A DNA stretch of 43,260 nt from Candidatus Micrarchaeota archaeon. Lineage in GTDB: Archaea > Micrarchaeota > Micrarchaeia > Norongarragalinales > SBBD01. Below, piece by piece: positions 7,053 to 38,611 of the stretch. A program made the position numbers and the translations under genes. Each line of letters starts with the position of its first letter. The first letter of the stretch is position 1. The notes below the pieces were generated by a model that was not told the origin of the DNA, searched no databases, and worked only from the letters and a program-made list of their open reading frames with translations. The stretch spans positions 1 to 43,260 of the forward strand of contig JBDRLB010000045.1 in the NCBI GenBank assembly GCA_043813365.1, given 5' to 3'.

Positions 7053-8588
7053 CTACTCCCCTAATTTGCGGATTATCCCTTTCGTTGCATCAACTTCAAC
7101 CTCATCCCCGTCCTTGAGCCATTTGGTCGCTATTTTGGTGCCTATGACGCAGGGGATTTTCAGCTCCCTGCTGACTATCGCGGCATGGCAGGTGACCCCG
7201 CCCTCATCCGTCACAATTGCGCCCGCTTTTTTCATTGCCGGCACTATGTTCGGGTTGGTGGCCATTGAAACAAGAATGTCGCCCTGCTGCATTTTCACCA
7301 TATCGGATGCTTTGCCGATAATTTTTACAACGCCCCGAACCAAACCGGGGTACGCAGGAGTGCCCTTCAGTTCCTTGAGGTTCATGTCCGCCTCCTCATG
7401 CACAACCAATTTTGAATATTTTTCCGCTTCCTTCCCAACATAAATACGGAATCCCTTCTCATCGCAAATCGTGACATTGTGCTTTATGCGCTCATTCAGC
7501 AAATCCGCATCAGCAGTCCCTTTTTGGAGCCACTCCCTTATTTCCGAATTGGTTGCATGCCTCACTTGCTTTGGGGAGAGCTCCAGCCGCTTTGCAAATT
7601 CCCGTATAAGCAGATCGGAATTCCGCGAACCAATGAAAACCGAATCCTTCCTGAGCCCCTTGAGATAGCTGAATTTACGCGCAACTTCGCACCAATATTT
7701 TTCTTCGGAAGAAAGGTTGAGATGCTTTTCAACATCGCGCTGCTGCTTTTCAATCTCCTTCCCATGCGCAAGAAGTGCCTCCTTCTTCCTTTTCCCATCG
7801 GTTCCCTGCTTCAATTCGCTCCGGAGCAAATCGCAGAAGAAGCGGCCATCAGCGAGGTCAGGCCCGTCGTAATGGAAGTTGATCCAATCGTATTTCTCAA
7901 CGTGTTTAAGAAGGAAGGAGTTGATAGCGGGGATTTTATGCAAATTGGTGATGATGCCCTCCAGCTCCATGCTGAAAATCAGCGTTGCTTCCTTATCCTC
8001 CTGTATTTCCTCCAAAATTTTGAAGAATTCTATTTCCTGTTGCTGCAGGAATGAAAGTTCAATTGGCGCTCCAAGGGTGCCGAACGCCTCTCCGGCTGAA
8101 ATCCCGGAGTTGCTTGCCTCTGCCCGCTGCTCCAGGAAAGCCATAATCTTGTTGGTGAGCATGAAATGGCCGAAATCCGCCAAATTGACGATGTCGCCCC
8201 AGCCGTTCATCCATTCCCACTTGTCCAGTAGGGAATCGTAAAGGTCGCACAACTGACCATTTTCAATTTTCGCCAAATCCATTCCCATTATTTTTTTTGA
8301 GAGCTCTTGGACTTCCTTTGCTGTTTTTTCCTGCCCATCATAGGTTTCCATCAGGAAGGCGGGTTTTTCCAGCCTTTTCAGCACGATCTTGCCCAGTTCG
8401 TCCCACTCGATGATTTCCCCGTCCGTTCTAGCGCAGTAGTACCGATGCGCATCCTTGCCATCCAATAGGAGGGTATTATTGGGGACGCCGATGAGTTTCT
8501 CCAGCTTATAATGGGAGCCGCGGATATAGCAGCAGGCGTGGACATATAGGGACGAATGGTCTTCCGCGAATTTCTTCCATTTTTTCAT
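7053..8588 (-). CDS. PEP-utilizer mobile (swivel phospho-His) domain protein with divergent N-terminal putative acceptor-binding region; array member 7
   Basis: C-terminal GDILV...TNPNIVPAMKKAGAIVTDEGGVTCHAAIVSRELKIPCVIGT. No ATP-grasp or pyruvate-binding TIM-barrel motifs. Confidence 0.9.
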   Translation of the reverse strand: MKKWKKFAEDHSSLYVHACCYIRGSHYKLEKLIGVPNNTLLLDGKDAHRYYCARTDGEIIEWDELGKIVLKRLEKPAFLMETYDGQEKTAKEVQELSKKIMGMDLAKIENGQLCDLYDSLLDKWEWMNGWGDIVNLADFGHFMLTNKIMAFLEQRAEASNSGISAGEAFGTLGAPIELSFLQQQEIEFFKILEEIQEDKEATLIFSMELEGIITNLHKIPAINSFLLKHVEKYDWINFHYDGPDLADGRFFCDLLRSELKQGTDGKRKKEALLAHGKEIEKQQRDVEKHLNLSSEEKYWCEVARKFSYLKGLRKDSVFIGSRNSDLLIREFAKRLELSPKQVRHATNSEIREWLQKGTADADLLNERIKHNVTICDEKGFRIYVGKEAEKYSKLVVHEEADMNLKELKGTPAYPGLVRGVVKIIGKASDMVKMQQGDILVSMATNPNIVPAMKKAGAIVTDEGGVTCHAAIVSRELKIPCVIGTKIATKWLKDGDEVEVDATKGIIRKLGE

Positions 8589-8613
8589 CAGAATCCTCCT
8601 TGATTTCCAAATA

Positions 8614-8630
8614 GAGTTATTGAAAAATTA
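8614..8630 (-). promoter_or_regulatory. putative promoter motif, copy 2
   Basis: GAGTTATTGAAAAATTA (+ strand) matches 18453..18469 at 15 of 17 positions. Lies upstream of the 8588 start and its GGAGG SD. Confidence 0.5.
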
Positions 8631-8651
8631 CCGGCATATGAGTTAAAATAG

Positions 8652-9461
8652 CTATCTAAGAAGGAGGCTCCTCTTCCTTTGAACCGCAGTTCCGAATCCG
8701 GTGCCGATCCCGTATTTTTTGCGGATTGCCTCATATGCGGCTTCGGTATGCTTGAACTCAGCTGCGACCCTTTCGCCCATGATCTCGTTTTTCCTATCGA
8801 CCCAGATGATTTGGAAGGGAAGCGATTGCATTTTCAGCAGCACGGCAAGCGCAAGGTCCGCAATGAGCATTTCCCTGACGTTCTGCCACTCATCTTCGTA
8901 GCTTTTGACAATAAGTTTGCGCTCCTTCAGGAGATCCAAAAAGAACCCAGAATAGCACGCTGCCGTTTTTTCCCCTCCATAGGGGATGCTGGAATACATC
9001 TTGCCGATTATGCGAGTTGTGCCGCTCGCTTCCATGCTTTTCTTCATCAAAGCGTCTGTTCCTCGGGAGAAGGAGATGATTTTTAACCCGGCTTTCCGGT
9101 CATTTTCAATGGCATTCCCCTTTTTGAAAACATCCGGGAACGCCACCATCTTGACCTCGCCGCGTTCAATCGCGAGCTCGAGGAAATCATAGTAAACTTC
9201 CCGGGCTTTCGTCCCTCTTTTTGGCGATTTTACTTTATTGAGAACGTATTTTGCGATTTTCCTATCTGATGCATTCTGGTTCATCGGTTCCAGCATTTCC
9301 CGTATTTTCCGCTCGTAAATCCCTCCGGTGCCTTTCATTTCCACAAGCGTGCCGTTGAAATCATACAGGGCGGCCTTTTCGAGGGAAGCGAGGCGAGGAT
9401 GGACTTCGACCTTCCTTTTCATCAACTCATTGAATTTTTGCTCAAATTCCATATTTATCAC
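8652..9461 (-). CDS. HAD-superfamily hydrolase, enolase-phosphatase E1 (MtnC)-like
   Basis: Motif I YDFNGTL, motif II IISFSRG, motif III EKTAACY, motif IV SYED. GEVKMVAFPDV resembles the MtnC cap region. The true start may be ATG 9452. Confidence 0.7.
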   Translation of the reverse strand: MINMEFEQKFNELMKRKVEVHPRLASLEKAALYDFNGTLVEMKGTGGIYERKIREMLEPMNQNASDRKIAKYVLNKVKSPKRGTKAREVYYDFLELAIERGEVKMVAFPDVFKKGNAIENDRKAGLKIISFSRGTDALMKKSMEASGTTRIIGKMYSSIPYGGEKTAACYSGFFLDLLKERKLIVKSYEDEWQNVREMLIADLALAVLLKMQSLPFQIIWVDRKNEIMGERVAAEFKHTEAAYEAIRKKYGIGTGFGTAVQRKRSLLLR

Positions 9462-10906
9462 TTTGTCAGCCTCCGGATAACCCCGTGGTTCGCATCCACT
9501 TCGACCAATTCGCCGTCCTTGAATATTTTCGTGGCGTTTTTCACGGCTACCAAACAGGGTACGCCGAGCTCCCTGGAAACGATTGCCGCATGGGAAGTGA
9601 TCCCTCCCTCTTCAGTCACTATCGCTGCCGCGATCCTCATGGCAACAACGTATTCAGGATCGGTTGCAGGTGCGATAAGGATGTCCTTGGGTGAAATTTT
9701 TTGCAATTCGGAAGCGCTGGAAACGATTTTCGCCAAGCCAATAGCCTTCCCGGAACTCGCGCATAAACCATGGATCTCGATGCACTCCTCCCCGATTTCC
9801 TCATTCCCATAAATTTCGCGGCATTTCTCACGGGCCTTTTTTCCTACAAACACTTCGGGGATTTCCTTCTGGAAAATTGTCAGGGAAAAATGCTGCCTTT
9901 CGAGCAAGGAACGTTCAGGCAGGCCATCATTTTCCATGATTTTTTCGATTTCCCAGGGGAACGCATTCTTCAGTGCCTTAAGGGAATACCCCTTCCTTTT
10001 CCCGATTTCCTTCAATAACAGGTCGAAAAAATGCACCGTTTTGATCCAGTATTTCTTCCGGATGTCCTGGAAATGGCCGAATTCGTCCATAATTTCGATG
10101 TAGGAATATGCGGAGGAAGGGATGCCCATTTTTTTCAAGAGCTGGAGCTTCCCCTTTTTAGAGGGCGGGGATAATTGGGGCTTGTTTTTGCTGCCATCAA
10201 TGTCGGCCTCGATCATTTCCCAAAAATCCCCAGCGGAAAGGATTTTCGTTTCGAGCGAATTGTTCTGTATCCAGAACCACTTTTTTGCATGCCGACCGAG
10301 TTTATTCTTGATTTCAATAGGCAATTGGGCGAAGCGCTTTTTCCGCAGTTTCCTAGTAATTGTCTTGGCGATTGCTTCCCTTTCCGCCTGCTCTGTTGCC
10401 AGGAATGATTTATGCGAGGGCATCAGCAATTGGGAGAGCAATCCGGATTTTTTCGCGTCCGCCTTCGATTTCCCGAACACGGCTTCCATCAGGACCATGT
10501 CGCCAACAATCGGGATGCTGTCCACGAAAATGCTGTCACCCCATAATTGGAAATATTCATCAGAAAGCGTGAGGAATAATGAAGTAAGGAAGGCATCCTC
10601 GATTTTGTGCAATTTTACAGCTTCGATTTTCCCATAAGTTGATTCGAGTTTTTTTATGTCCTTTCGGTAAATCTTCCAGATTTTATTCCTATATTTTTTA
10701 CTTTTGAGCCGTTGGAACGCCCTTCTTCCCATAGCGACAAGATTTTCCTTCGGGGAACTCCATCTTCCCTTGCCGTTGTCAATGACGAAGATGGTTTTTC
10801 CATAATTTACGCCCCATTCCCGCTTCATCCGGATGGATCCCTGCGCAAGTGCGTATGTGGACTGCAAAGCCGAATCGTAGAACCATTCCGCCCACTTATC
10901 TTCCAT
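9458..10906 (-). CDS. PEP-utilizer mobile domain protein; array member 6
   Basis: C-terminal TDPEYVVAMRIAAAIVTEEGGITSHAAIVSRELGVPC. Internal FQDIRK motif. Confidence 0.9.
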   Translation of the reverse strand: MEDKWAEWFYDSALQSTYALAQGSIRMKREWGVNYGKTIFVIDNGKGRWSSPKENLVAMGRRAFQRLKSKKYRNKIWKIYRKDIKKLESTYGKIEAVKLHKIEDAFLTSLFLTLSDEYFQLWGDSIFVDSIPIVGDMVLMEAVFGKSKADAKKSGLLSQLLMPSHKSFLATEQAEREAIAKTITRKLRKKRFAQLPIEIKNKLGRHAKKWFWIQNNSLETKILSAGDFWEMIEADIDGSKNKPQLSPPSKKGKLQLLKKMGIPSSAYSYIEIMDEFGHFQDIRKKYWIKTVHFFDLLLKEIGKRKGYSLKALKNAFPWEIEKIMENDGLPERSLLERQHFSLTIFQKEIPEVFVGKKAREKCREIYGNEEIGEECIEIHGLCASSGKAIGLAKIVSSASELQKISPKDILIAPATDPEYVVAMRIAAAIVTEEGGITSHAAIVSRELGVPCLVAVKNATKIFKDGELVEVDANHGVIRRLTK

Positions 10907-10908
10907 GT

Positions 10909-12438
10909 TCAGCCCTCGAGTTTGTTCACTTCGCCGTGGTTTGCCTTAACCTCCAGCAAATCGCCGTCCTTGAAAACGCGTGTTGCAATGCGGGTGCCTA
11001 TGATGCATGGGATTCCCAGTTCGCGGGAGACTATTGCTGCATGCGAGGTTATTCCCCCTTCATCAGTAACAATAGCGCACGCCTTTTTCATTGCCGGAAC
11101 CATTTCAGGCCGGGTTGCGTGTGCAATCAGAACTTCCCCTTCCTCCACTTTTGGAATGTCTGCGGATAAGAGCACCAATTTCGCCTTTCCAACAGCATAC
11201 CCCAATGAGGCGCAGGTTCCCCTGACGCTGGCAACTGCTGATTTGCCGGAATGCCCGAAACCCTTCAATAAGCGCTTTTCCCGGGCATGCGCATCCTTTC
11301 CGCTGTAAATCTTTACATTGTCATAACCGAAAATCAGCAGGCAGTTGGTGCGGCGTATTTTCAATTCGGATAAAAATTTCCTGTCTGCCAAGTACTGCTC
11401 TTTTATTTCAGTTGGGAGGGCGTAAAGAAGCAGGTCCTTTTCAATCCCGTATCTTTTTTCTAACTCGTTCGCAAGCAGATGTGACCAGTAAACGGCCTTA
11501 AGCATGCTGGTTTTGCGGTAATCCTGGTAATATGCGAGCTTGCTAACCAAGTCCAGCAATGCTGTTAATTTTGGAGGAAGCCTTAGTTCTTCCTGCACCT
11601 TATCCCTTGCGAGCAATTTCCCCTTTTCCTTCATTTTGAATTCGTCAAGGTGCTTTTTTGGGTCGGTGCAGGCCTTGAATTTCTCCCTCAGCATGTTGAT
11701 GAAATAGTTGATATTCAGATAGGGCGTATATGCGTAGTTGTTGTTTATCCAATGGAATTTCTCAATGTGGAGCAATAGCCGTTTTTCAATGGTCGGATAT
11801 TTCTTCAGGGAATCCCTTATTTCATGGATAAGCCCCCGGAATGCCTTCTTCAGCATTTCTTCCATTCCTATCAAGGCCATTATCTCCAGCAGGTCCTTCT
11901 CCTCGGAAATGTGGAAGAGCTCCCCGGAAATTGGGGTGAGATCCACGAAATATTGCGAGTATTTGTTCTCCAGCCCTTTTTCCTTAAGGAACGCGCCCAG
12001 CTTCTCCCTGATTTTATGCTCAAGGTAGAAGTAGGAGGGTTCCATCAGGTAGCTTGGGACATAGCAGGCGGAATACGCGTCATTGAGTTCTTTTTCGAGG
12101 GCGATCAAATCAGTTTCGGAAAGCATCGGCAGGGGCCTGAACCGGGTCTTCTTGATCAGTTTTTCCAGTTTTTTGAACTCATTGGTGAAATCCTTAAGCG
12201 ATTTTCCAAATAATGCGGGATTTTTTAGGATACGCTTAACGATGATTTCACCTGCCTTCAACGTTTCTTTCCTCCGTATGTAGTAGCGCGCGTTCACGCC
12301 CTTGATTGGCACAACCTGCTGCTTGACACATGCCTTCCAATAGCGTTCCATCCTCCTTCCCATGGGTTCGCATGCAGGGTACATTAGAAGCGGCGTGAGC
12401 TCCGCAAAATATTCGTAGAACAACGGTTTCTGCATCAT
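10909..12438 (-). CDS. PEP-utilizer mobile domain protein; array member 5
   Basis: C-terminal TRPEMVPAMKKACAIVTDEGGITSHAAIVSRELGIPC. Internal YQDYRK motif. Confidence 0.9.
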   Translation of the reverse strand: MMQKPLFYEYFAELTPLLMYPACEPMGRRMERYWKACVKQQVVPIKGVNARYYIRRKETLKAGEIIVKRILKNPALFGKSLKDFTNEFKKLEKLIKKTRFRPLPMLSETDLIALEKELNDAYSACYVPSYLMEPSYFYLEHKIREKLGAFLKEKGLENKYSQYFVDLTPISGELFHISEEKDLLEIMALIGMEEMLKKAFRGLIHEIRDSLKKYPTIEKRLLLHIEKFHWINNNYAYTPYLNINYFINMLREKFKACTDPKKHLDEFKMKEKGKLLARDKVQEELRLPPKLTALLDLVSKLAYYQDYRKTSMLKAVYWSHLLANELEKRYGIEKDLLLYALPTEIKEQYLADRKFLSELKIRRTNCLLIFGYDNVKIYSGKDAHAREKRLLKGFGHSGKSAVASVRGTCASLGYAVGKAKLVLLSADIPKVEEGEVLIAHATRPEMVPAMKKACAIVTDEGGITSHAAIVSRELGIPCIIGTRIATRVFKDGDLLEVKANHGEVNKLEG

Positions 12439-13943
12439 TTCACCTTCCTAACCAACCCATGGTTTGCATTCACTTCGACGAAATCTCCGTCCTTTAGGAT
12501 TTTTGTGGCGATCTTCGTGCCGATTATGCAAGGGATCCCAAGCTCCCGGGACACAACTGCCGCATGCGATGTAATCCCCCCTTCGTCCGTAACCACTGCA
12601 GCCGCTTTTTTCATGGCAGGGACGAGTTCCGGGCGCGTCATGCTGCTGACCAGGATGTCGCCGTGCTTCATTTTAACGATATCTTTTGTGTTATTGACAA
12701 TACGCACGTACCCTTCCACCCTTCCGATTGACGCGCATTGGCCCCGCACGTCCTCGCAGGCGCTTTTTTCTCCTGCAAAAAGCATTTTTTCCAGTATTAC
12801 AGCATCCTTTCCAGTAAAAACATCCTCGAACCCTTTCCCGATGATCATAACGCTGAATTTCCTGCGCTCGTGCATCAATTTCTTGTCAAGCTTGCCTTTT
12901 CTGAGATATGCAATAAGCTCGGAAGGTGTCGAATAGACCACTTCGTAAAAAGTTGCACCCAGCCTCCTGGCGAATTCATTTAGGAAGCTGCATGCATAAT
13001 GGTCTCCGATGAGATTCTCCTTCTTTCTTACATCCTGCCACCAAGCAAAGCGTTCAATTATCTCCAAAATCAGCTTCAGCCTGCCATTAATTTCCAATCG
13101 TTTTATGAGCCCCTTTTTCCCTTTTTTTGCTTCAATAGGGAATTTTTCCATCTTCCGGATTTCCTTCAAGGGATCAACTCCCTCCTTCAGCAATTCGGAA
13201 ACCTCATTCGCGAAATCCCCGGCCTTAAGATCGCGTGCGATCAGGTAACTATTCCGGATCCAATGGTACTTTTTTGCATGGGCATCAAGATCGGCCCTTA
13301 TTGCGGGATCCGATAATAGCTGCTTTGGCGTTATTTTCTTTTGAAAATTATTTTTCTTGATTTTATGGACGATTTTCAGCAGTCCCTTGCGTTCGTCATT
13401 CGTAAATGATACGTTCACCGGAGCGGTCAGGGCCGGGAAATATTTTGTGAATTCCTTCTCCGCCCCCCGCCGTTTCAGGAGCGCTATCAGCAAATGCCTT
13501 GCAAGGCTTTCCGAATGGATGCCAATGGCATCCGCAATTATTGGGATGCTCCATTCCCTGATGTATATGCCGATGAATCGATTGTAGGCGCGAATAAGCT
13601 CGGAATCGGGAAGCCCGGCAAGGTCGATTGAATCCAGCCTCCTGCATTCCCTTTCAAATTCACGGAGGTCCTTTTTCCATAAACGGATCAGATTCGAAAG
13701 GTATACCGGGTCCTTTTCAAGCTCCGAAATAAGGCGTTCGGTTATTTTCCTCAAATCCTCCTGGTCATAAATCCATTTTGCGAAATTGTTCCGGTGTATG
13801 CCGATTATTGATTTGTAGCCATAACCGACACGCTCCTGCAGGGACTTGGCAGTAGCTATTCCCGGCAGCCAGATTATTTGAAGTGATGATTCGCAAGCCT
13901 GGATATAATTCTTCCTTTCCTTGAAAACCGAAAAATCCCTCAT
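12435..13943 (-). CDS. PEP-utilizer mobile domain protein; array member 4
   Basis: C-terminal TRPELVPAMKKAAAVVTDEGGITSHAAVVSRELGIPC. Internal WQDVRK motif. 4-nt overlaps on both sides. Confidence 0.9.
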   Translation of the reverse strand: MRDFSVFKERKNYIQACESSLQIIWLPGIATAKSLQERVGYGYKSIIGIHRNNFAKWIYDQEDLRKITERLISELEKDPVYLSNLIRLWKKDLREFERECRRLDSIDLAGLPDSELIRAYNRFIGIYIREWSIPIIADAIGIHSESLARHLLIALLKRRGAEKEFTKYFPALTAPVNVSFTNDERKGLLKIVHKIKKNNFQKKITPKQLLSDPAIRADLDAHAKKYHWIRNSYLIARDLKAGDFANEVSELLKEGVDPLKEIRKMEKFPIEAKKGKKGLIKRLEINGRLKLILEIIERFAWWQDVRKKENLIGDHYACSFLNEFARRLGATFYEVVYSTPSELIAYLRKGKLDKKLMHERRKFSVMIIGKGFEDVFTGKDAVILEKMLFAGEKSACEDVRGQCASIGRVEGYVRIVNNTKDIVKMKHGDILVSSMTRPELVPAMKKAAAVVTDEGGITSHAAVVSRELGIPCIIGTKIATKILKDGDFVEVNANHGLVRKVK

Positions 13944-15454
13944 TTTTCCACCCTACGGACGGAGCCGTGGATTGCATTCACATCGACAACATCCCCATCC
14001 TTGAATATTTTTGTCGCATTGCCGGTGCCGACAATGCATGGAATCCGGAGTTCCCTGGAAACGATCGCAGCATGGCAGGTGATCCCGCCCTCATCCGTGA
14101 CAATCGCTCCCGCCCGTTTCATCCCTACAACGTAATCCGGGGAGGTCATAGGTGCGACCAGCACGTCCCCATGATTCACCTTCATGATATGCATTGCGCT
14201 CATCACGATTTTCACGCGGCCCGTATGCCTCCCGATGGATGCACAGGTGCCGTAGATTTTCAGCCCCTTCTTCTCATCCGGATTTTCCTGGATGTTCCTT
14301 TTTATGAATTCCCTTGATTCGGGCTTATTCAAAAACCGGGTCCTGCCCCTGCTGTCCCAGATGCATACGCTCAGGCCATACCTTTGTTTCAATACGGGAT
14401 TTGGAATCCCCTTTCCTTCAATAAGCGCTTCACGTATTTCCCCGATAGTCATAAACCTTGAAAGCACAACCGTGGTATCAAGGCGTTTTGCGATTTCCTC
14501 GAGAAGCGGGATCAGCAGATAATGCGACTTGGTGAAGCCTTCCTTCTTGAAGTCAATGATGAAGGTCGCGAGCCTGATGTAATCGAAAAGTGATTGGAGC
14601 GACTTTGGCAGGCGGTACCTCAGGATGGCTTCGTCTTGCCTATTTTTCAGTTCGGAAGGGCGCCTTTTAAGGCCATTGAGCATGGCAGCGCAATTCCTTT
14701 TTAAAACGTAGTTCATCAATGCCGAAGCGAAATGGCCGATGTCCCAAATCTGGACGCCATAATCATATGGCAGCCAGCAGTATTTTTTTTCATGAATTTG
14801 CAAATCCCCCCATATTTTGCTGGCTTTCAGAGCGTTGATGATCCTTCCCTTGTTTTTTCCCCTGAAGATTGCCATCATTTTGGGTTTTTTCTGGACCATC
14901 GCGCCCAACCGGAGCAGGTCCTGCTCTTCCTGTGCAATGAAGGACTGCTCGAGAGGCGTTGAGAGAAGGGCTATTATCTCGTTGGCATTCTCCCTGCCAA
15001 CGCATTTGATTGTTTCCCTTTTGATTTCCAAGGTTACCCGGTCTTTTGTTGCCATGGGTACGGGCTCCCCGTATATCGATGCCTCCTCGTATAAAGCAGC
15101 GTAATGGCGGTATTTTTCCCATAGCTCCGTGTTGTCAAGTTTTGACAGGTCCATTGAATTTATTTTCTCCGAGTAACGTAGCAGCTTGTTGAGGCGCGGG
15201 AGGAATTTTCCATAGAGGATCTTCAGTTGGCCCGGATCCCTCAGTATCCGTGAAGAGACATGGGAGAAAAGCGAATTCATCTTCCTCTTGTCCGCATACC
15301 AGGTCATTACGCCGTCCGTGTAGGTCACGAAGAAACTGCCGAATGACTTGCCAAACCAGACGGGGATGGGTATTGCGTATATTTTTCCAAGGATTTCCAC
15401 GTACGGGGAAAGGTAGGCGTGCGTTTTCCTCTGCGCATATACCCATTGGATCAT
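13940..15454 (-). CDS. PEP-utilizer mobile domain protein; array member 3
   Basis: C-terminal TSPDYVVGMKRAGAIVTDEGGITCHAAIVSRELRIPC. Internal YGEP, WLPYDYG and DFKKEGFTKSH. Confidence 0.9.
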   Translation of the reverse strand: MIQWVYAQRKTHAYLSPYVEILGKIYAIPIPVWFGKSFGSFFVTYTDGVMTWYADKRKMNSLFSHVSSRILRDPGQLKILYGKFLPRLNKLLRYSEKINSMDLSKLDNTELWEKYRHYAALYEEASIYGEPVPMATKDRVTLEIKRETIKCVGRENANEIIALLSTPLEQSFIAQEEQDLLRLGAMVQKKPKMMAIFRGKNKGRIINALKASKIWGDLQIHEKKYCWLPYDYGVQIWDIGHFASALMNYVLKRNCAAMLNGLKRRPSELKNRQDEAILRYRLPKSLQSLFDYIRLATFIIDFKKEGFTKSHYLLIPLLEEIAKRLDTTVVLSRFMTIGEIREALIEGKGIPNPVLKQRYGLSVCIWDSRGRTRFLNKPESREFIKRNIQENPDEKKGLKIYGTCASIGRHTGRVKIVMSAMHIMKVNHGDVLVAPMTSPDYVVGMKRAGAIVTDEGGITCHAAIVSRELRIPCIVGTGNATKIFKDGDVVDVNAIHGSVRRVEK

Positions 15455-16944
15455 TTTTCCACCTTCCTAACAATGCCATGGGACGCCTTCACTTCCAGCA
15501 GGTCGCCGTCCTTGAATGCGGATGTTGCTATGCGTGTCCCGACAACGCAGGGGATGTTGAATTCCCTTGCGACAATAGCTGCATGGCATGTGATGCCGCC
15601 GTCATTTGTTACGATTGCGGCCGCATTTTTCATCCCGTGCACGAAATCCGGCGTTGTCATTATTGTGACCAAAATCTCCCCCTTTTTGAGCTTTGGAAGA
15701 TCAGATGCTGAAAGGATGACCCGCGCCTTTCCTCGAACAGTTCCGGCGCATGCGCATGTGCCCTTAAGTTCGGTTGCAACCGCTCTATCTTTTCCGAGGA
15801 GGCCCACTTTTTTGAGGGATGTGTCGGCTTTTTCAGCTGCGATCATTTCCACTTTTCCATTGGTTGAATGAAGCACGCGCAGCATTTTCGGGTTCGGGCT
15901 TATTTTCTCCCCATTCAATGCAGATATAATTTCCGGCGGCGTTGAGGAATATGCCTGTTCCATGCTCCAATCAAGCCTTTTTGCTGCCTCGTGGAGCAGG
16001 TTCCGGTAGGCAAAATGGCTTTTTGTATGGCATTCCTTCTTGAAATCCATGAGGAAACCCGTTATCCGAAGGACATTCAGGTAGGAGGATGTTTTTACAT
16101 CAAGCCCGAGGGTTTTTTCCATATTCCTTTGTTTCTCCCCTATCCGGCCGTAATATTCTGAAATTTCACGGAGCCTTTTATCCGGATCAAAGCCCTGCTC
16201 CATCAGATTCCTTGCCGTATCCGTGAAATATGATGCATCCCAAACAGCCCCTCCGTAATCGAAAGGGACCCAAAAGTATTCTGCTTCATGATCCTTGAAA
16301 AGTGCGGCATATTTCCCGTATGCCTTTCCGGATAAAAATTGCTTTTCCATGCCATTTTTCCGGATGAGGCGGATAACTTTCAGCAGGGATTCCTCTTCCC
16401 TTGTTGCAAACGGTTTTTCAGTAGGGGCAGTGAGCAACGTAAATACGGCCCCGAATTCGCCTGATTTTCCTTTTTCCACGAGTACTTCCTTTATCCCTGC
16501 TTCTGCTAAAGAGGCAAAATGGTCTTTGACAGCGAATGCGAAGGGCTCCCCGTAAACATATGCTTCATCGTATTCTTTCCAATATTCCCTAATGAGTGAT
16601 GCGAGCCCGGCATTGCCCGTAGAATTCAATTTTGAAGGGTTTAGGCGGCCGTTGAAATCAAGCAGCCTCTTGATCCTCTTTTTGAAATTGGCGCAAATCC
16701 CTTCCGCAAGTGCAGGGTTTTTCTCCACCGCATTGCCGCATACGAGCTCCACTTTCCGGATTAGGTCCTCACGAAAGTACGCCTTGAAGCTGCCTTTTTC
16801 CCCAAAAACAGCAATAATTTCGCCATAGCTGGAGCCAGCAGCTTCCTGCATTTTTGCTGTATAGTCGATGCAGATGTTGTAAAGCATATGCAGATGGAAG
16901 CCTTCCTTCCGTTCCTGTACTAATGCCCATTCCATGAAGTTCAC
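15451..16944 (-). CDS. PEP-utilizer mobile domain protein; array member 2
   Basis: C-terminal TTPDFVHGMKNAAAIVTNDGGITCHAAIVAREFNIPC. Internal YGEP, WVPFDYG and DFKKECHTKSH. Confidence 0.9.
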   Translation of the reverse strand: MNFMEWALVQERKEGFHLHMLYNICIDYTAKMQEAAGSSYGEIIAVFGEKGSFKAYFREDLIRKVELVCGNAVEKNPALAEGICANFKKRIKRLLDFNGRLNPSKLNSTGNAGLASLIREYWKEYDEAYVYGEPFAFAVKDHFASLAEAGIKEVLVEKGKSGEFGAVFTLLTAPTEKPFATREEESLLKVIRLIRKNGMEKQFLSGKAYGKYAALFKDHEAEYFWVPFDYGGAVWDASYFTDTARNLMEQGFDPDKRLREISEYYGRIGEKQRNMEKTLGLDVKTSSYLNVLRITGFLMDFKKECHTKSHFAYRNLLHEAAKRLDWSMEQAYSSTPPEIISALNGEKISPNPKMLRVLHSTNGKVEMIAAEKADTSLKKVGLLGKDRAVATELKGTCACAGTVRGKARVILSASDLPKLKKGEILVTIMTTPDFVHGMKNAAAIVTNDGGITCHAAIVAREFNIPCVVGTRIATSAFKDGDLLEVKASHGIVRKVEK

Positions 16945-18413
16945 TTGATTATCCCGACAATGCCTTTGGTGGCGTTCAGCTCCACCATCATGCCGTCCTT
17001 CAGAACATCCGTCGCGATCTTTGTTCCTACGATGCAGGGGATGCCCAGTTCCCTGCTTACAATCGCAGCGTGGCAGGTTAGGCCGCCCGTGTTAGTGATT
17101 ATCGCGGCTGCTTTTTTCATTGCCGGCACTATGTCGGGGTTGGTGGCGGGAGCGACGAGGATGTCGCCCTGATTCATTTTGTGCATGTCTTTCGGGGAAA
17201 GTATCAGTTTTACTGTTCCCTTCGCAAATCCGGGGCACGCGCATTGGCCCCTTAGTTCTTTTGATTCGATGATTTTTTCCTCAAGTACGTCCTCCCTCAT
17301 TATCCGCTGCGCTTCCTTTCCAACATATACTTCGGTAGAGTCATCCTTGCTTATTGCAACCGAGAATTTGAAGCGTTCGTTGTAAAGCGAAGGGTTGGTG
17401 GGGCGGTTTTTCAGCGCTTCTTTTATTTCATTTGGCAGCATAAACCTTACTTGCTTGGGGGTCAAATGGAGCCTCTTTGCAATTTCGGCGATCAATGACC
17501 GCATCTCGAAATAACTCCTGAAAAGGATGTCCTTCCGGTCTGCCTTGAAGAATATCAGGTCGGATGCGATGTCAAAGAGTTTGATTTCGGATTTGGAAAG
17601 TTCAAGGAGGGATATTGTGCTTTTTCTTTTTATTTCATCCTCCTTTTCCTTGTTTTTTATTTTTTCGAGCTCTTTTTTTGCATCTGTTTTCTGCTTCAGC
17701 ATGCTTTCCAGCACGGATTCGAAATGCTCCTTCTTCCAAGGGTCGTTTTCATATGTGCACGGGAGCCATCCATATTTTTTTGTATGTGCGATAAGGAGCT
17801 TTTGAATCTGAGGGGAATGGATGAACTTTGGGCTCTTGATTAGTGCGGCAATTTCCAACAAATCCATGTCCTGCTGCTTCCCAAGGGTGAACTTCTTTGG
17901 ATTGGTGAGCGTTGTGAACAATATGCTAAGCTGGTCCTCGGTTGCATCTGGAAGGTGCCTCCTGATTATTCCCCTCAGCTTGTCCGAAAGGGCGCTGCTG
18001 AGATCGAGTGCGGGTGCGATCCAAGCGTAGCCGCGCATTTCCTTGCACCGCTTGCAGTAATCAGAATAATAAGTCCAAAGTTGTGCATTGGATTTGGAGG
18101 CTAGGGTTATGGACGATATTTCCCCGGTCAATTCCAGCATCCTTTTGCCTAGCCGGTAAGTCTCCTTGATTGCATGCTCGACAAAATCAGGATCGGATGC
18201 TACCTTTTTGCCCAGTATCTCAGCTACTCGTTGGGTGTCGCCCTCAATCTCATAAAAGCCCCACGCGTCCCCCTTGAAGGGGTACATCAGCCCCTTATAG
18301 CTTGCGCCGAGCGCTTTCTGCATGCTGCTGTTCTTCCCGCAGCCGGATTCGAAAAGGAAAATCGGGAACAGGCTCGCGTCGTTCCTGATGTCTACCTTCA
18401 CCCATTTTTCCAC
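16941..18413 (-). CDS. PEP-utilizer mobile domain protein; array member 1
   Basis: C-terminal TNPDIVPAMKKAAAIITNTGGLTCHAAIVSRELGIPC. GTG start with a GAGGGG SD. Confidence 0.9.
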   Translation of the reverse strand: MEKWVKVDIRNDASLFPIFLFESGCGKNSSMQKALGASYKGLMYPFKGDAWGFYEIEGDTQRVAEILGKKVASDPDFVEHAIKETYRLGKRMLELTGEISSITLASKSNAQLWTYYSDYCKRCKEMRGYAWIAPALDLSSALSDKLRGIIRRHLPDATEDQLSILFTTLTNPKKFTLGKQQDMDLLEIAALIKSPKFIHSPQIQKLLIAHTKKYGWLPCTYENDPWKKEHFESVLESMLKQKTDAKKELEKIKNKEKEDEIKRKSTISLLELSKSEIKLFDIASDLIFFKADRKDILFRSYFEMRSLIAEIAKRLHLTPKQVRFMLPNEIKEALKNRPTNPSLYNERFKFSVAISKDDSTEVYVGKEAQRIMREDVLEEKIIESKELRGQCACPGFAKGTVKLILSPKDMHKMNQGDILVAPATNPDIVPAMKKAAAIITNTGGLTCHAAIVSRELGIPCIVGTKIATDVLKDGMMVELNATKGIVGIIK

Positions 18414-19818: not shown

Positions 19819-20781
19819 CTAGATTGTGGTAATCGGCCGGCTTTGGACTATGTAGATTTTACCCGCTTCCACCGCGTACTCGATGTCCTGCGGCTTTCCG
19901 TAGTGCTTTTCGATGGAAATGCAAGTTTTTGCGAGGGAAATGATGGATTTGCCATCGAGTTTCTGCTTTGAGCGATTTTCAGCAGGCACAGGAACCTCTT
20001 CTGTTCCCACTTGTTTTCCCTTGATCACTTTCATTATCATTTTTTCCTGCTCATTGACGGAAATGTCGCTCAGGGAAAGGTCTTTCTTTCCAACAACATA
20101 ATTGTCCGGCGTGACTAGGCCGCCAACAACCGCTTCCCCTAATCCGAAAGCGGCCTCAATCACCATCTGGTTAGCATCCTTAGTGACGGGATGCACAGTG
20201 AAGACCACACCGGCAACTTCCGAATTGATCATTTTCTGCACCACAACAGCAACTGATACTTTTTGCGAGGAAAGCTTTTTCTCTATGCGGTAAAAAATTG
20301 CGCGCGGCGTGAAGAGGGAGGACCAGCACATCTTCACCGTGTCCAGCAGATTCGCCCTCTGGATGTTCATGTAGGATTCAAGTTCGCCAGCCCAGCTGGC
20401 TGCTGCGGCGTCCTCGGCAGTTGCTGATGAGCGCACTGCAACAAATTTTGCATCCAGGGAATCGAATTGGGAAAGGATGGCGTTTTCAACATCGGTGCTA
20501 ATCTTCCCTTTGGCAATCGAGGCGCGGATTTCCTTCGATGCGGCGTCAACGGTTTCGGTTTTATTGATGTCAACTGTTTTGAGCATTTTTTCTATTTTTC
20601 CGGAGAGGTTGTTTTCATTTATGAATGTTTCGAATGAATCAACCAGGACGACGAATCCCGGCGGGACAGGAATGCCCGCATTGAACATCTCCCCCAGCTG
20701 AGCTCCCTTGCCGCCTGCGATTGAAACGGATGACTTGCTCAATTTTTGGAACGGCAGCACGTAATTTGGCATTTCATTCAC
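19819..20781 (-). CDS. stand-alone ATP-grasp/nucleotide-binding (PPDK_N) domain of the PEP synthase family
   Basis: Motifs GGKGAQLGEM, VAVRSSATAED, FGLGEAVVGG.VTPD, PQDIEY. Ends at IVQSRPITTI, the domain boundary. No His domain or TIM barrel. Confidence 0.93.
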   Translation of the reverse strand: MNEMPNYVLPFQKLSKSSVSIAGGKGAQLGEMFNAGIPVPPGFVVLVDSFETFINENNLSGKIEKMLKTVDINKTETVDAASKEIRASIAKGKISTDVENAILSQFDSLDAKFVAVRSSATAEDAAAASWAGELESYMNIQRANLLDTVKMCWSSLFTPRAIFYRIEKKLSSQKVSVAVVVQKMINSEVAGVVFTVHPVTKDANQMVIEAAFGLGEAVVGGLVTPDNYVVGKKDLSLSDISVNEQEKMIMKVIKGKQVGTEEVPVPAENRSKQKLDGKSIISLAKTCISIEKHYGKPQDIEYAVEAGKIYIVQSRPITTI

Positions 20782-36462: not shown

Positions 36463-37581
36463 CTATCTTATCAGCCTAATGATTTTTGTCTTCCCGGCAT
36501 TGGATTTGGGGTCGCTAGCGAGTTCGGCTGAGATCAGGCGGGCGGATTCGAACATCTGCAGGTAGTTCATTATGTGCCTCTCGGAAACCGGCTCCTTCCT
36601 TTCCTTCTTCCTAAGCTCATTGAATTTCTGGTAAATTTCGCCTGAAGTGAGGGATTTGCCCTTCTCCTTCGCATCCTTCAGAATTTGCAAGAGCATTTTT
36701 TCGTTCTCCCCCATCAAATCCACATTCTTCATAAGTGAAGACTCGGCAGCTTTTTCAATAACAGCCTTCACATCCGCAACCTCTATTCTGCTTTTTTCCT
36801 TGGAATCCGCCTTCATTGCCGCTTGGAGAAGCGTTTCAATTGCAATCCTGGCGTCGCCTTTGTTTTTCGCACCATGGGCGGCGCAGAGGGCGATAATTTC
36901 CGCTGAGTAAGTGCCCTGCTTGAGCGCGATTTTCGCTCGCTCTTCCAGAATGTCCTTAAGTTGCTGCGGCGAGTACTGCGGGAAGTGCATTTCCTTTAGT
37001 GAGAGCGAACTGCGGATGCGGTCATCCAACGAATAGAAAATCTCCGGCACGTTGGTTATGCCGATTATCCCGAAAACGATTTTATAGTTCTCATCTGAAC
37101 GCGAGAGCTGGTAGAGCACGTCGGTTTCATTTTTGTGAAGCAGCCGATCGACCTCATCCAATGCAATGATGGCGGATTTCTTGTCGTATTTGAGCTGCTC
37201 GATTATGCGGCGGAATATCTCATCATCCGCGAGCCCTCTCCTTGCAAGCCCCAAACCGATTTTTTCAGCTATGTATGAGAGTATCGCCTGCTTGGAGGGG
37301 AATTCCCAGCAGTTGATGTGGATGCAGTGCACCTTGCCGGAGAATTCCTTGAGCTCGTTGAAAACGTATTTTACGCTGGAGGTTTTGCCAGTTCCGGTTG
37401 GGCCGTGAATGAGGAGGTTTTGGGGCTTGAGGTGCTTTAGAGTTGGCTTGAGTGAATCCGCTATTTCCCGGATTTGATTGTCGCGGTGGAGCAGCGATGA
37501 AGGGACGTATTCGGGCATCAATGCCTGCTGGTTCCTGAAGATGCGGCTTTCCTCCATTGAAGGCGAGAATAATTTGTCCAT
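36463..37581 (-). CDS. cdc6: Cdc6/Orc1 replication initiator AAA+ ATPase
   Basis: L.PEYVP..L.HRD, Walker A GPTGTGKT, INCW, Walker B IALDEVD, F.QYS..QL.DIL.ER, GDARIAI and a C-terminal wHTH. Confidence 0.95.
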   Translation of the reverse strand: MDKLFSPSMEESRIFRNQQALMPEYVPSSLLHRDNQIREIADSLKPTLKHLKPQNLLIHGPTGTGKTSSVKYVFNELKEFSGKVHCIHINCWEFPSKQAILSYIAEKIGLGLARRGLADDEIFRRIIEQLKYDKKSAIIALDEVDRLLHKNETDVLYQLSRSDENYKIVFGIIGITNVPEIFYSLDDRIRSSLSLKEMHFPQYSPQQLKDILEERAKIALKQGTYSAEIIALCAAHGAKNKGDARIAIETLLQAAMKADSKEKSRIEVADVKAVIEKAAESSLMKNVDLMGENEKMLLQILKDAKEKGKSLTSGEIYQKFNELRKKERKEPVSERHIMNYLQMFESARLISAELASDPKSNAGKTKIIRLIR

Positions 37582-37653: not shown

Positions 37654-38481
37654 ATGTTTAATCAGTCCGTTTTAATGCTCATGGAGAATATCGTCGAGGA
37701 AGAAGCATTTTTAGGGACGTATAAATATAGGACATTTGGGGAAAAAGCGTTAAATAAATACAGGCATTGGTTTCCGGTCAAATCATCAGCGGATCTTTCT
37801 GAAATTGTGGCGAGTTTGCTAACGGATGGGCATTTGGAAGGAAGAAAAGTGCAGGATCATTTCAAATACGATTATTTCGGTTATTTCTCAAAAAATACTG
37901 AGGATCTGGAGCATTTCAACGGATTGTTGAAAAGGTGTTTTGGTATCCAAGGAAAAATTAGGAGTTGGGGAAAGCGGTTAAATGGTGCAAGTACCGGGGT
38001 CATCGTCTGCAATTATGCACTCTCAAGAATTCTTTTTCTTTGTGGAGCTGAAAGGGGCGATAAAATAACAAAGGAATATCGCCTTCCGGCATGGATTTCG
38101 AATGGATCACTTGATACAAGGGCAGCTTTCCTGAGGAGGGCATTTTCATGCGAAGGGACAATAACCCGCGATAATAGAGGCTATTGGGCATTGAAGTATA
38201 CCATGGGAAAAACTGAAGCTATTTCGCAAAACGGGATTACCTTTCTTACAGACATGAAAAAAATGTTATATGAGTTCGGAATAGAGTCAAACAACATATT
38301 CCTAAACCAGAAGATATTGAGGAAGAAGGATAATACAACAACATATATGTACTGCTTAAAGATATTGAGGAAATCAATTCCGGTTTTTGCGGATAAAATC
38401 GGCTTCGACATAGGATATAAAAATGATAGGCTTCAAAAAGCTAGAGCATGGGCCTCTACATCTAGGGTCTCCCCTAACTAA
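37654..38481 (+). CDS. free-standing LAGLIDADG endonuclease-like protein (two motifs)
   Basis: Motif 1 LSEIVASLLTDGH, motif 2 AAFLRRAFSCEGT, and an F..KIGF...KN.RL C-terminus. Visibly AT-richer than its neighbours. No intein splice-junction residues seen. Confidence 0.8.
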   Translation: MFNQSVLMLMENIVEEEAFLGTYKYRTFGEKALNKYRHWFPVKSSADLSEIVASLLTDGHLEGRKVQDHFKYDYFGYFSKNTEDLEHFNGLLKRCFGIQGKIRSWGKRLNGASTGVIVCNYALSRILFLCGAERGDKITKEYRLPAWISNGSLDTRAAFLRRAFSCEGTITRDNRGYWALKYTMGKTEAISQNGITFLTDMKKMLYEFGIESNNIFLNQKILRKKDNTTTYMYCLKILRKSIPVFADKIGFDIGYKNDRLQKARAWASTSRVSPN

Positions 38482-38605
38482 TCAGTTAAGGGGGCTAGCT
38501 CTTGTAGCTTAGTCTGGTTGGAGCGTTCGACTGATATTTTCCCGGCTCATTTGGGTCGGCAAGTCGGACATCGAAAGGTCCCCGGTTCAAATCCGGGCAG
38601 GCCCA
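38465..38605 (+). tRNA. tRNA-Ile(GAU) with two BHB introns: 38468..38500 (position 3/4) and 38537..38569 (37/38)
   Basis: The spliced sequence GGG|CTTG TA GCTT AGTCTGGTTG GAGC G TTCGA CTGATA|A TCGAA AGGTC CCCGG TTCAAAT CCGGG CAGGCCC A folds into a full cloverleaf. The 37/38 BHB is CTGA/TCGG with 3-nt bulges. The tRNA and the 37/38 intron are secure; the 3/4 intron is less so. CCA is not encoded. Confidence 0.88.
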
Positions 38606-38611
38606 TTTTTT
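38606..38611 (+). terminator. oligo-T terminator after tRNA-Ile
   Basis: T6 immediately after the discriminator base. Confidence 0.55.

Follow-up and report, generated by a model that had tools for sequence, protein, structure and literature searches.

How non-canonical tRNA introns arrive and spread is called an open question in the accessible text of a 2014 review (PMC4090602) and again in that of a 2026 preprint (bioRxiv 10.64898/2026.10.13.758758), and the words homing and LAGLIDADG are absent from the preprint's main text as far as it is available. The tRNA-Ile(GAU) gene studied here raises this question for an intron in the acceptor stem. The gene lies in a stretch of 43,260 nucleotides of archaeal DNA, hereafter the window. 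An earlier note on this DNA proposed that the gene has two introns, at 3/4 and at 37/38. Its splice model stands, but the reading is incomplete, since it overlooked a LAGLIDADG gene that overlaps the tRNA gene. The overlapping gene is the more interesting part of the locus: the tie between nuclease and intron makes the spread of odd tRNA introns testable, because the locus offers a named enzyme, a candidate target of 20-30 bp, alleles that are empty or filled in nature, and an assay that is simple to run in vitro.

Two introns in the tRNA-Ile(GAU) gene

The sequence supports a gene with BHB introns at 3/4 and 37/38, both of which we infer to be spliced. All coordinates given in the earlier note for this locus, including the 33-nt length of both introns, agree with the sequence. 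The parts of the gene are as follows.

38456..38464, plus strand: 5′ leader; forms the outer BHB helix and three of the central pairs
38465..38467, plus strand: tRNA exon 1, tRNA positions 1-3, GGG, the same in 10/10 loci
38468..38500, plus strand: 3/4 BHB intron, 33 nt
38501..38536, plus strand: tRNA exon 2, tRNA positions 4-37; anticodon GAT at 38533-35
38537..38569, plus strand: 37/38 canonical BHB intron, 33 nt, present in 4/10 carrier loci
38570..38605, plus strand: tRNA exon 3, tRNA positions 38-73, with no encoded CCA
38606..38611, plus strand: T6 run, a possible terminator

When left unspliced, the acceptor stem fails at pairs 2 and 3, and the contiguous Rfam alignment, which starts at 38498, is non-standard there. 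Excision of 38468-38500 gives seven acceptor pairs, one of which is G-U. At the 3/4 junction, a central helix of CTAG (38462-65) with CTAG (38495-98) is flanked by the bulges GG/T and CT/C. Past one T-T mismatch, the leader sequence CTACA (38456-60) forms a 5-bp outer helix with TGTAG (38503-07). The hairpin of the 3/4 intron has 11 positions with one C-A mismatch, and the central helix of the 37/38 intron is CTGA with TCGG. On a scoring scheme of our own, the combined acceptor and BHB score is 20, and none of 2000 dinucleotide-shuffled versions of the upstream 110 nt attains it. Minimum-energy folding of the locus gives no BHB, as expected for bulged motifs.

Removal of the introns restores the cloverleaf, with ARAGORN scores of 119.9 for the spliced and 112.1 for the unspliced form. 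The earlier note suggested that standard scanners may mis-call the gene. In accordance, ARAGORN reports 0 genes in the whole window, and ARAGORN with introns allowed and Rfam both place the gene start at 38498, so that standard scanners get the 5′ end of an essential tRNA wrong here. Assembly error at the locus is ruled out by two public DNA runs from two studies, one of which may be the source sample: whole contigs match with 0 differences (X2, 38403-38577; X3, 38354-38504).

Comparative support for splicing at 3/4

When 574 single-intron placements are scored per locus, the 3/4 placement ranks first in 10/10 loci with a broken acceptor. The spliced acceptor is paired 7/7 in eight loci and 6/7 in the other two, and the length of the 3/4 intron ranges from 31 to 42 nt. 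The earlier note proposed covariation of the BHB in relatives as a check, and compensatory changes are seen across the 10 loci. In the alignment, 90.7% of 150 cells are paired and 9/15 pairs have changed on both sides; the paired share and the covariation score are each reached by 0/500 shuffles. Control structures slid along the alignment pair 29-43%, a comparison that favours the reference structure, since it was derived from one of the aligned sequences. The central helix is 97.5% paired over the 10 loci, and 2/4 of its pairs have changed on both sides. In 6/10 loci, including that of the source genome (G000), the first outer pair is mismatched, which corresponds to the relaxed BHB form.

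Another 5′ end can be drawn further upstream.

38450..38455, plus strand: GGGCCT, rival 5′ end (6/7 intron), rejected; codes W-A in the nuclease ORF

The mature tRNA would then begin at 38450, and a 48-nt intron at 6/7 would be removed instead. In G000 and G004, this form has full acceptor pairing and a central helix of 4 bp. It starts 34 nt past the TATA-like box described below, as several intact genes do, and receives an ARAGORN score of 121.2, against 119.9 for the 3/4 form. However, its acceptor and BHB score is 17 as compared with 20, and 17 is reached by 56/2000 shuffles. It is weak or mispaired in G003, G005, G044, and L091, G050 has no upstream GGG, and it ranks second in G000 and G004 only. 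On its lower score and its failure to form in several relatives, we reject the 6/7 intron as very improbable; GGGCCT may be left over from an earlier 5′ end of the tRNA. That the 3/4 segment stays unspliced, with the mispaired acceptor used as such, the tRNA edited, or the gene a pseudogene, is hardly credible, given that the BHB helices covary, that tRNA positions 1-3 would all be mispaired in 8/10 carrier loci, and that each carrier genome holds one sole match to the Ile(GAU) anticodon-arm pattern (a single occurrence in the assembly of G000, which is 1.34 Mb and 88.6% complete).

Promoter, processing enzymes, and order of steps

The predicted promoter of the tRNA gene lies within the upstream nuclease ORF.

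38416..38423, plus strand: TATA-like box TATAAAAA, inside the nuclease ORF (Y-K-N codons), 49 nt upstream of G1; predicted promoter of the tRNA

The box TATAAAAA is invariant and located 46-49 nt before G1 in 10/10 carriers, and it is retained in G027, where the remainder of the ORF is lost. The range of 30-49 nt given for Thermofilum tRNA promoters in the available part of PMC3218864 covers this spacing. A sigma-70 promoter scan, whose model is unsuited to archaea, gives chance-level output.

The genome encodes a broad-specificity splicing endonuclease of the kind that the earlier note links to such introns: a 388-aa epsilon2-type EndA matches PDB 4FZ2 over its full length (395 aa, E 2e-128). 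We take 4FZ2 to be the epsilon2 EndA of ARMAN-2. Enzymes of this type cut both strict and relaxed BHB motifs, according to the accessible portion of PMC3239211. Together with the covariation in 10 loci, the enzyme backs the double-intron reading. RNase P RNA is present in the genome, and the ligase RtcB is found in pieces on two contigs, C27 and C7; the piece on C27 appears to contain an intein.

Of the four bases on the 5′ side of the central helix, three belong to the leader, so splicing probably precedes RNase P trimming. The RNA-level scheme, in which the gene is transcribed from the embedded box, spliced by EndA with the leader still attached, and ligated by RtcB, is almost certainly right. 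Transcription would start ~25 nt past the TATA-like box that the nuclease ORF contains. The leader would pair with the end of the intron and with exon 2, and the epsilon2 EndA would cut at 38467/8 and 38500/1. RtcB would ligate the exons, and only afterwards would the acceptor stem be complete for RNase P.

A LAGLIDADG gene overlaps the tRNA gene

The gene directly upstream of the tRNA, its predicted acidic residues, and its left neighbour are located as follows.

36463..37581, minus strand: cdc6, divergent left neighbour
37654..38481, plus strand: free-standing two-motif LAGLIDADG ORF, 275 aa (PF14528, E 6e-9, above cut-off); probable start 37681 (266 aa)
37825..37827, plus strand: D58, acidic residue of motif 1; D in 10/10 aligned homologues
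38152..38154, plus strand: E167, acidic residue of motif 2; E or D in 10/10 aligned homologues

The acidic residues of LAGLIDADG motifs have an established catalytic role in this family. In the predicted structure (pLDDT 84.8), the order alpha-beta-beta-alpha-beta-beta-alpha appears twice. The best NCBIfam similarity of the nuclease is to intein-borne domains, below cut-off, and a search of PDB sequences with the nuclease profile gives 0 matches at E<=0.01. Within the genome, this is the single PF14528 match in a short ORF; the five others lie in frames of 974-1791 aa. Among the closer nuclease pairs, pN is 0.17-0.31 at near-saturated pS, indicating purifying selection.

The 3′ end of the ORF spans the TATA-like box, the leader, and exon 1 of the tRNA gene, and its stop codon (38479-81) is located in the loop of the 3/4 intron. 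The body of the ORF is thus upstream of exon 1 and its last codons alone enter the intron, so the nuclease is not intron-encoded in the manner of I-DmoI. Neither a large intron around the nuclease nor an orphan 5′ exon upstream of it is seen by eye in the left flanks of six carriers, and both readings are rejected.

Distribution of nuclease and intron

In the order, 49 of 67 sampled genomes have a recovered tRNA-Ile(GAU) locus. Every gene with a 3/4 intron has the nuclease ORF (eight full) or a remnant of it (G027, E 9e-5), 9/9 in all, and none of the 39 intact genes scanned has one (best E 0.019). In 8 of the intact genes the 3′ acceptor strand is missing or misread; their 5′ ends start with GG. 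Fisher values for this association, computed on a table without G043 and G061, overstate it, since the number of independent events is ~3-4. G061 has just 156 nt of upstream sequence. G043, which has a 13/14 intron, was outside the main order scan and was examined separately; it has no large upstream ORF except one resembling ribonucleotide reductase. The metagenome loci L089, L090, L092, and L093 are duplicates of G004, G003, and G044 and are not counted. On a host tree of five ribosomal proteins from 59 genomes (FastTree, midpoint-rooted), carriers occupy four places: genus g1 (6/6 genomes), G044, G050, and G027. Close kin of G044 and of G027 are intronless.

The phylum sample comprises 401 genomes, of which 302 show the anticodon-arm pattern and 247 an intact 5′ pattern. 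All 55 differing genes were inspected. Five are sequence variants, and the others have introns at 3/4 (10 genes), at ~9/10 (7), at 13/14 (11), or in the D-loop (22), with positions beyond the 10 scored loci assigned by eye. Close homologues of the nuclease (E<1e-60) occur in nine genomes, each time immediately before a tRNA-Ile(GAU) gene that has a 5′ intron, and in 0 of the 247 genomes with an intact 5′ pattern. The association is one-way: the nuclease predicts the intron (9/9 in the phylum sample) and the reverse fails. Among the 50 genes with introns in the 5′ region, nine have a full nuclease of the clade found at tRNA-Ile, three have a nuclease of a second LAGLIDADG clade, and two have clear remnants. 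The second clade is located upstream of tRNA-Ile in 3/11 loci with a 13/14 intron. G197, of another family (L194/L243), has a 3/4 intron in tRNA-Ile(GAU) and no detectable nuclease. A scan of the 22 D-loop-intron loci with the Ile-clade profile finds no nuclease; the upstream ORFs of 12 of them were put to Pfam. Nuclease clades sort by the gene that they adjoin: tRNA-Ile, tRNA-Pro, or a gene presumed to be carB.

The nearest homologue outside the order belongs to G254, of another order. It adjoins the same tRNA, with an intron at ~9/10 and rpL15 on the left, and its ORF likewise ends inside the intron. Two genus-mates of G254 show other states of this site: G300 has rpL15 and an intact gene, and G142 has rpL15 and the 9/10 intron with no nuclease. 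The cassette is thus found in three gene contexts, and for each of them there is a relative with an empty site. Where cdc6 is the left neighbour, the empty site is that of G006, of the same family, in which cdc6 faces a tRNA-Ile that has no intron, and no endonuclease lies between the two. Where SfLAP is the neighbour, the gene follows intronless in G023, and in L091 a small ORF and then the nuclease lie between SfLAP and the 3/4 gene. The rpL15 context is that of G300 and G254. The alleles are patchy: G006, G023, and G300 are empty, nine are full, and G366 (a nuclease copy with an internal deletion), G027 (in which the remnant starts just before the TATA-like box, and promoter and leader alone are retained), and G142 are decayed or lost.

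Proposed joint homing of nuclease and intron

We propose that the 3/4 intron shields the target of the free-standing homing endonuclease, and that nuclease and intron spread together. On the sequence evidence we consider this rather likely. The intron would interrupt the recognition site, a reading that we infer from one nuclease clade being associated with two intron positions (3/4 and ~9/10). In a cell with both alleles, the nuclease would cut the empty allele within roughly tRNA positions 1-20, a target predicted from position alone. The gene left of the cassette and the body of the tRNA would provide the homology for repair, and repair would copy in the nuclease, the promoter, the leader, exon 1, and the intron. 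The embedded promoter would make clean loss of the cassette hard; therefore, the nuclease would decay while promoter and intron remain.

Two observations are hints of mobility. The nucleases of G044 and G050 are 64% identical (dN 0.26), as compared with 57% for their ribosomal proteins (rpL2 dN 0.42). The nuclease gene of G004 (L034) is a mosaic, in which the first half is 79-88% identical to that of G001 and the second half is mostly 52-54% identical to G001 and 70-85% identical to G000. Several points speak against the proposal. An intron without a nuclease is common (9 full Ile-clade nucleases among 50 genes). Two of the five nucleases of the tRNA-Pro clade lie beside a tRNA-Pro without a visible intron, so adjacency needs no intron. 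G044 and G050 share a host clade, and one gain plus loss could explain both. Position 3/4 marks the border of the conserved sequence, and we assume that an intron so placed can protect the target.

Two other explanations have to be weighed, both of which we regard as unlikely. According to the first, the homing endonuclease cuts elsewhere, in the left neighbour or deeper in the tRNA, and the 3/4 intron is a co-converted passenger that gives no protection. Free-standing phage endonucleases do often cut far from their own gene, as described in the available text of PMC2988022, and the two tRNA-Pro-linked homologues without an intron would fit. However, the left neighbour varies (cdc6; metK, HTH-CBS, or SfLAP; rpL15) whereas the tRNA is constant, and one nuclease clade is found with introns at two different positions.

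According to the second, which we hold to be as probable as the first, the intron is an ordinary non-canonical gain tolerated by the epsilon2 EndA; the LAGLIDADG gene is old, locked in, or domesticated, and kept for the tRNA promoter, and intron and nuclease alike are passed on by vertical descent. In genus g1 the cassette is fixed (6/6 members) and under strong purifying selection, with a dN near that of rpL2, which fits long vertical inheritance or domestication and counts against the homing proposal; within g1, the nuclease diverges at least as fast as the ribosomal proteins. The frequency of 5′ introns without any nuclease points the same way, as does the retention that embedded promoters favour, according to the part of PMC2988022 at hand. 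Against vertical inheritance, the nuclease is lost and the tRNA kept in G027 and G142; the spread is patchy, with empty sites and one mosaic gene; the members of one nuclease pair resemble each other more than their hosts do; and both acidic residues are retained. Joint homing with protection by the intron is the reading that we prefer.

More tentatively, free-standing LAGLIDADG genes that dock on the front ends of archaeal tRNA genes may perhaps be a general engine of non-canonical intron gain. Each clade would target one gene, take over its promoter, fix a spliceable insertion that breaks the site (3/4, 9/10, and 13/14 in tRNA-Ile), and decay, leaving an orphan intron. If so, many introns of DPANN tRNAs that have no nuclease beside them would be traces of earlier homing. 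If cleavage holds for the enzyme studied here, it would be a new nuclease with a long site, directed at a conserved tRNA gene.

Comparison with known systems

Introns at 3/4 are already known from Pyrobaculum, and the 3/4 intron alone is a rare but known kind of BHB intron. The new part is the intron's tie to an overlapping endonuclease, the two intron positions per nuclease clade, and the series of full, empty, and decayed alleles. In a search of mainly open-access literature, we found no paper in which a free-standing LAGLIDADG gene is described as the partner of a tRNA intron in archaea; supplementary tables of intron positions may list 3/4 cases in tRNA-Ile.

The non-canonical BHB introns of Thermoproteales and ARMAN-2, as far as described in the accessible parts of PMC3239211 and PMC4090602, have in common with this locus the 3-4-3 BHB geometry, two introns per gene, and a matching EndA. 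In contrast, the intron here is at the extreme 5′ end, includes the leader in its motif, and is tied to an overlapping nuclease gene. A closer parallel in enzyme type is found in the 16S rRNA of Pyrobaculum oguniense, where, according to the available text of PMC4496867, Pog.S1213 cuts the intron-minus site of the hairpin intron Pog.S1205 and co-converts it; both systems combine an archaeal LAGLIDADG enzyme with a neighbouring ORF-less hairpin BHB intron. Pog.S1213, as that text has it, lies inside its own BHB intron in an rRNA gene, whereas the nuclease here is free-standing and upstream of a tRNA gene, and its ORF supplies promoter, leader, and exon 1; cleavage by it is predicted only. Intron-encoded LAGLIDADG enzymes of the I-DmoI type and intein endonucleases have the two-motif monomer and PF14528 in common with our nuclease, but here the ORF is outside the intron, and the 266 aa contain no intein splicing domains.

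The partner of the phage enzyme F-CphI is reportedly an ORF-less group I intron. Collaborative or trans homing in phages (F-CphI and T4 mobE; accessible parts of PMC2988022, PMC2790892, and PMC6083498) likewise involves a free-standing endonuclease whose inferred target holds an adjacent ORF-less intron. This trait is present here, in that the free-standing nuclease adjoins an ORF-less intron with which it is co-distributed (9/9 vs 0/39 in the order). T4 segG, as presented in the available portion of PMC2988022, has a host promoter embedded in the nuclease ORF, as here. Unlike the phage systems, the present one is on an archaeal chromosome, with a LAGLIDADG enzyme, a protein-spliced intron of 33 nt, and a tRNA target. 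Other related literature, available in part, is PMC4033280 and PMC8450103.

Related nuclease genes and other features

The second LAGLIDADG clade upstream of tRNA-Ile(GAU) is found at L195 (G377), L231 (G146), and L237 (G382). Its ORFs are ~360-390 aa long where complete, with an HTH match in G377, and read into the tRNA-Ile(GAU) gene at all three loci. G043, G199, and G266 have similar upstream sequence without the ORF. Nucleases of the Pro clade are located directly upstream of tRNA-Pro at L041/L173 (G016), L042 (G056), L043 (G012), L044 (G024), and L241 (G044), four cases being in the rpL13-rpS9 cluster. By eye, tRNA-Pro has a 3/4 intron in G012, an anticodon-loop intron in G016, a D-loop insertion in G044, and no intron in G056 and G024.

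At L183 (G057), L047 (G009), and L242 (G005), a LAGLIDADG-like ORF ends just before a gene with a BHB-type intron of ~30 nt, which splits the N-terminal codons and has a GCCG central helix. The three nucleases form one clade, and we take the downstream gene to be carB on the basis of a sequence motif. Related free-standing nucleases with no tRNA nearby are found at L170, L171, and L174 (G301, G322, and G320; family f19), where they end convergently on a conserved protein gene. At L018 (G007) and L212 (G281), the tRNA-Ile gene is preceded, at a distance of 60-110 nt, by a short copy of its own 5′ end.

Several further tRNA genes of G000, on contigs C11, C28, C42, and C46, have insertions or occur as fragments, and ARAGORN reports 10 tRNA genes in this genome as compared with 18 Rfam matches above cut-off. 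Elsewhere in the window, seven near-tandem ORFs of ~500 aa occupy 7053-18413 on the minus strand; each of the three tested has a PEP-utiliser mobile domain at its end, and PPDK_N is encoded by a gene of its own at 19819-20781.
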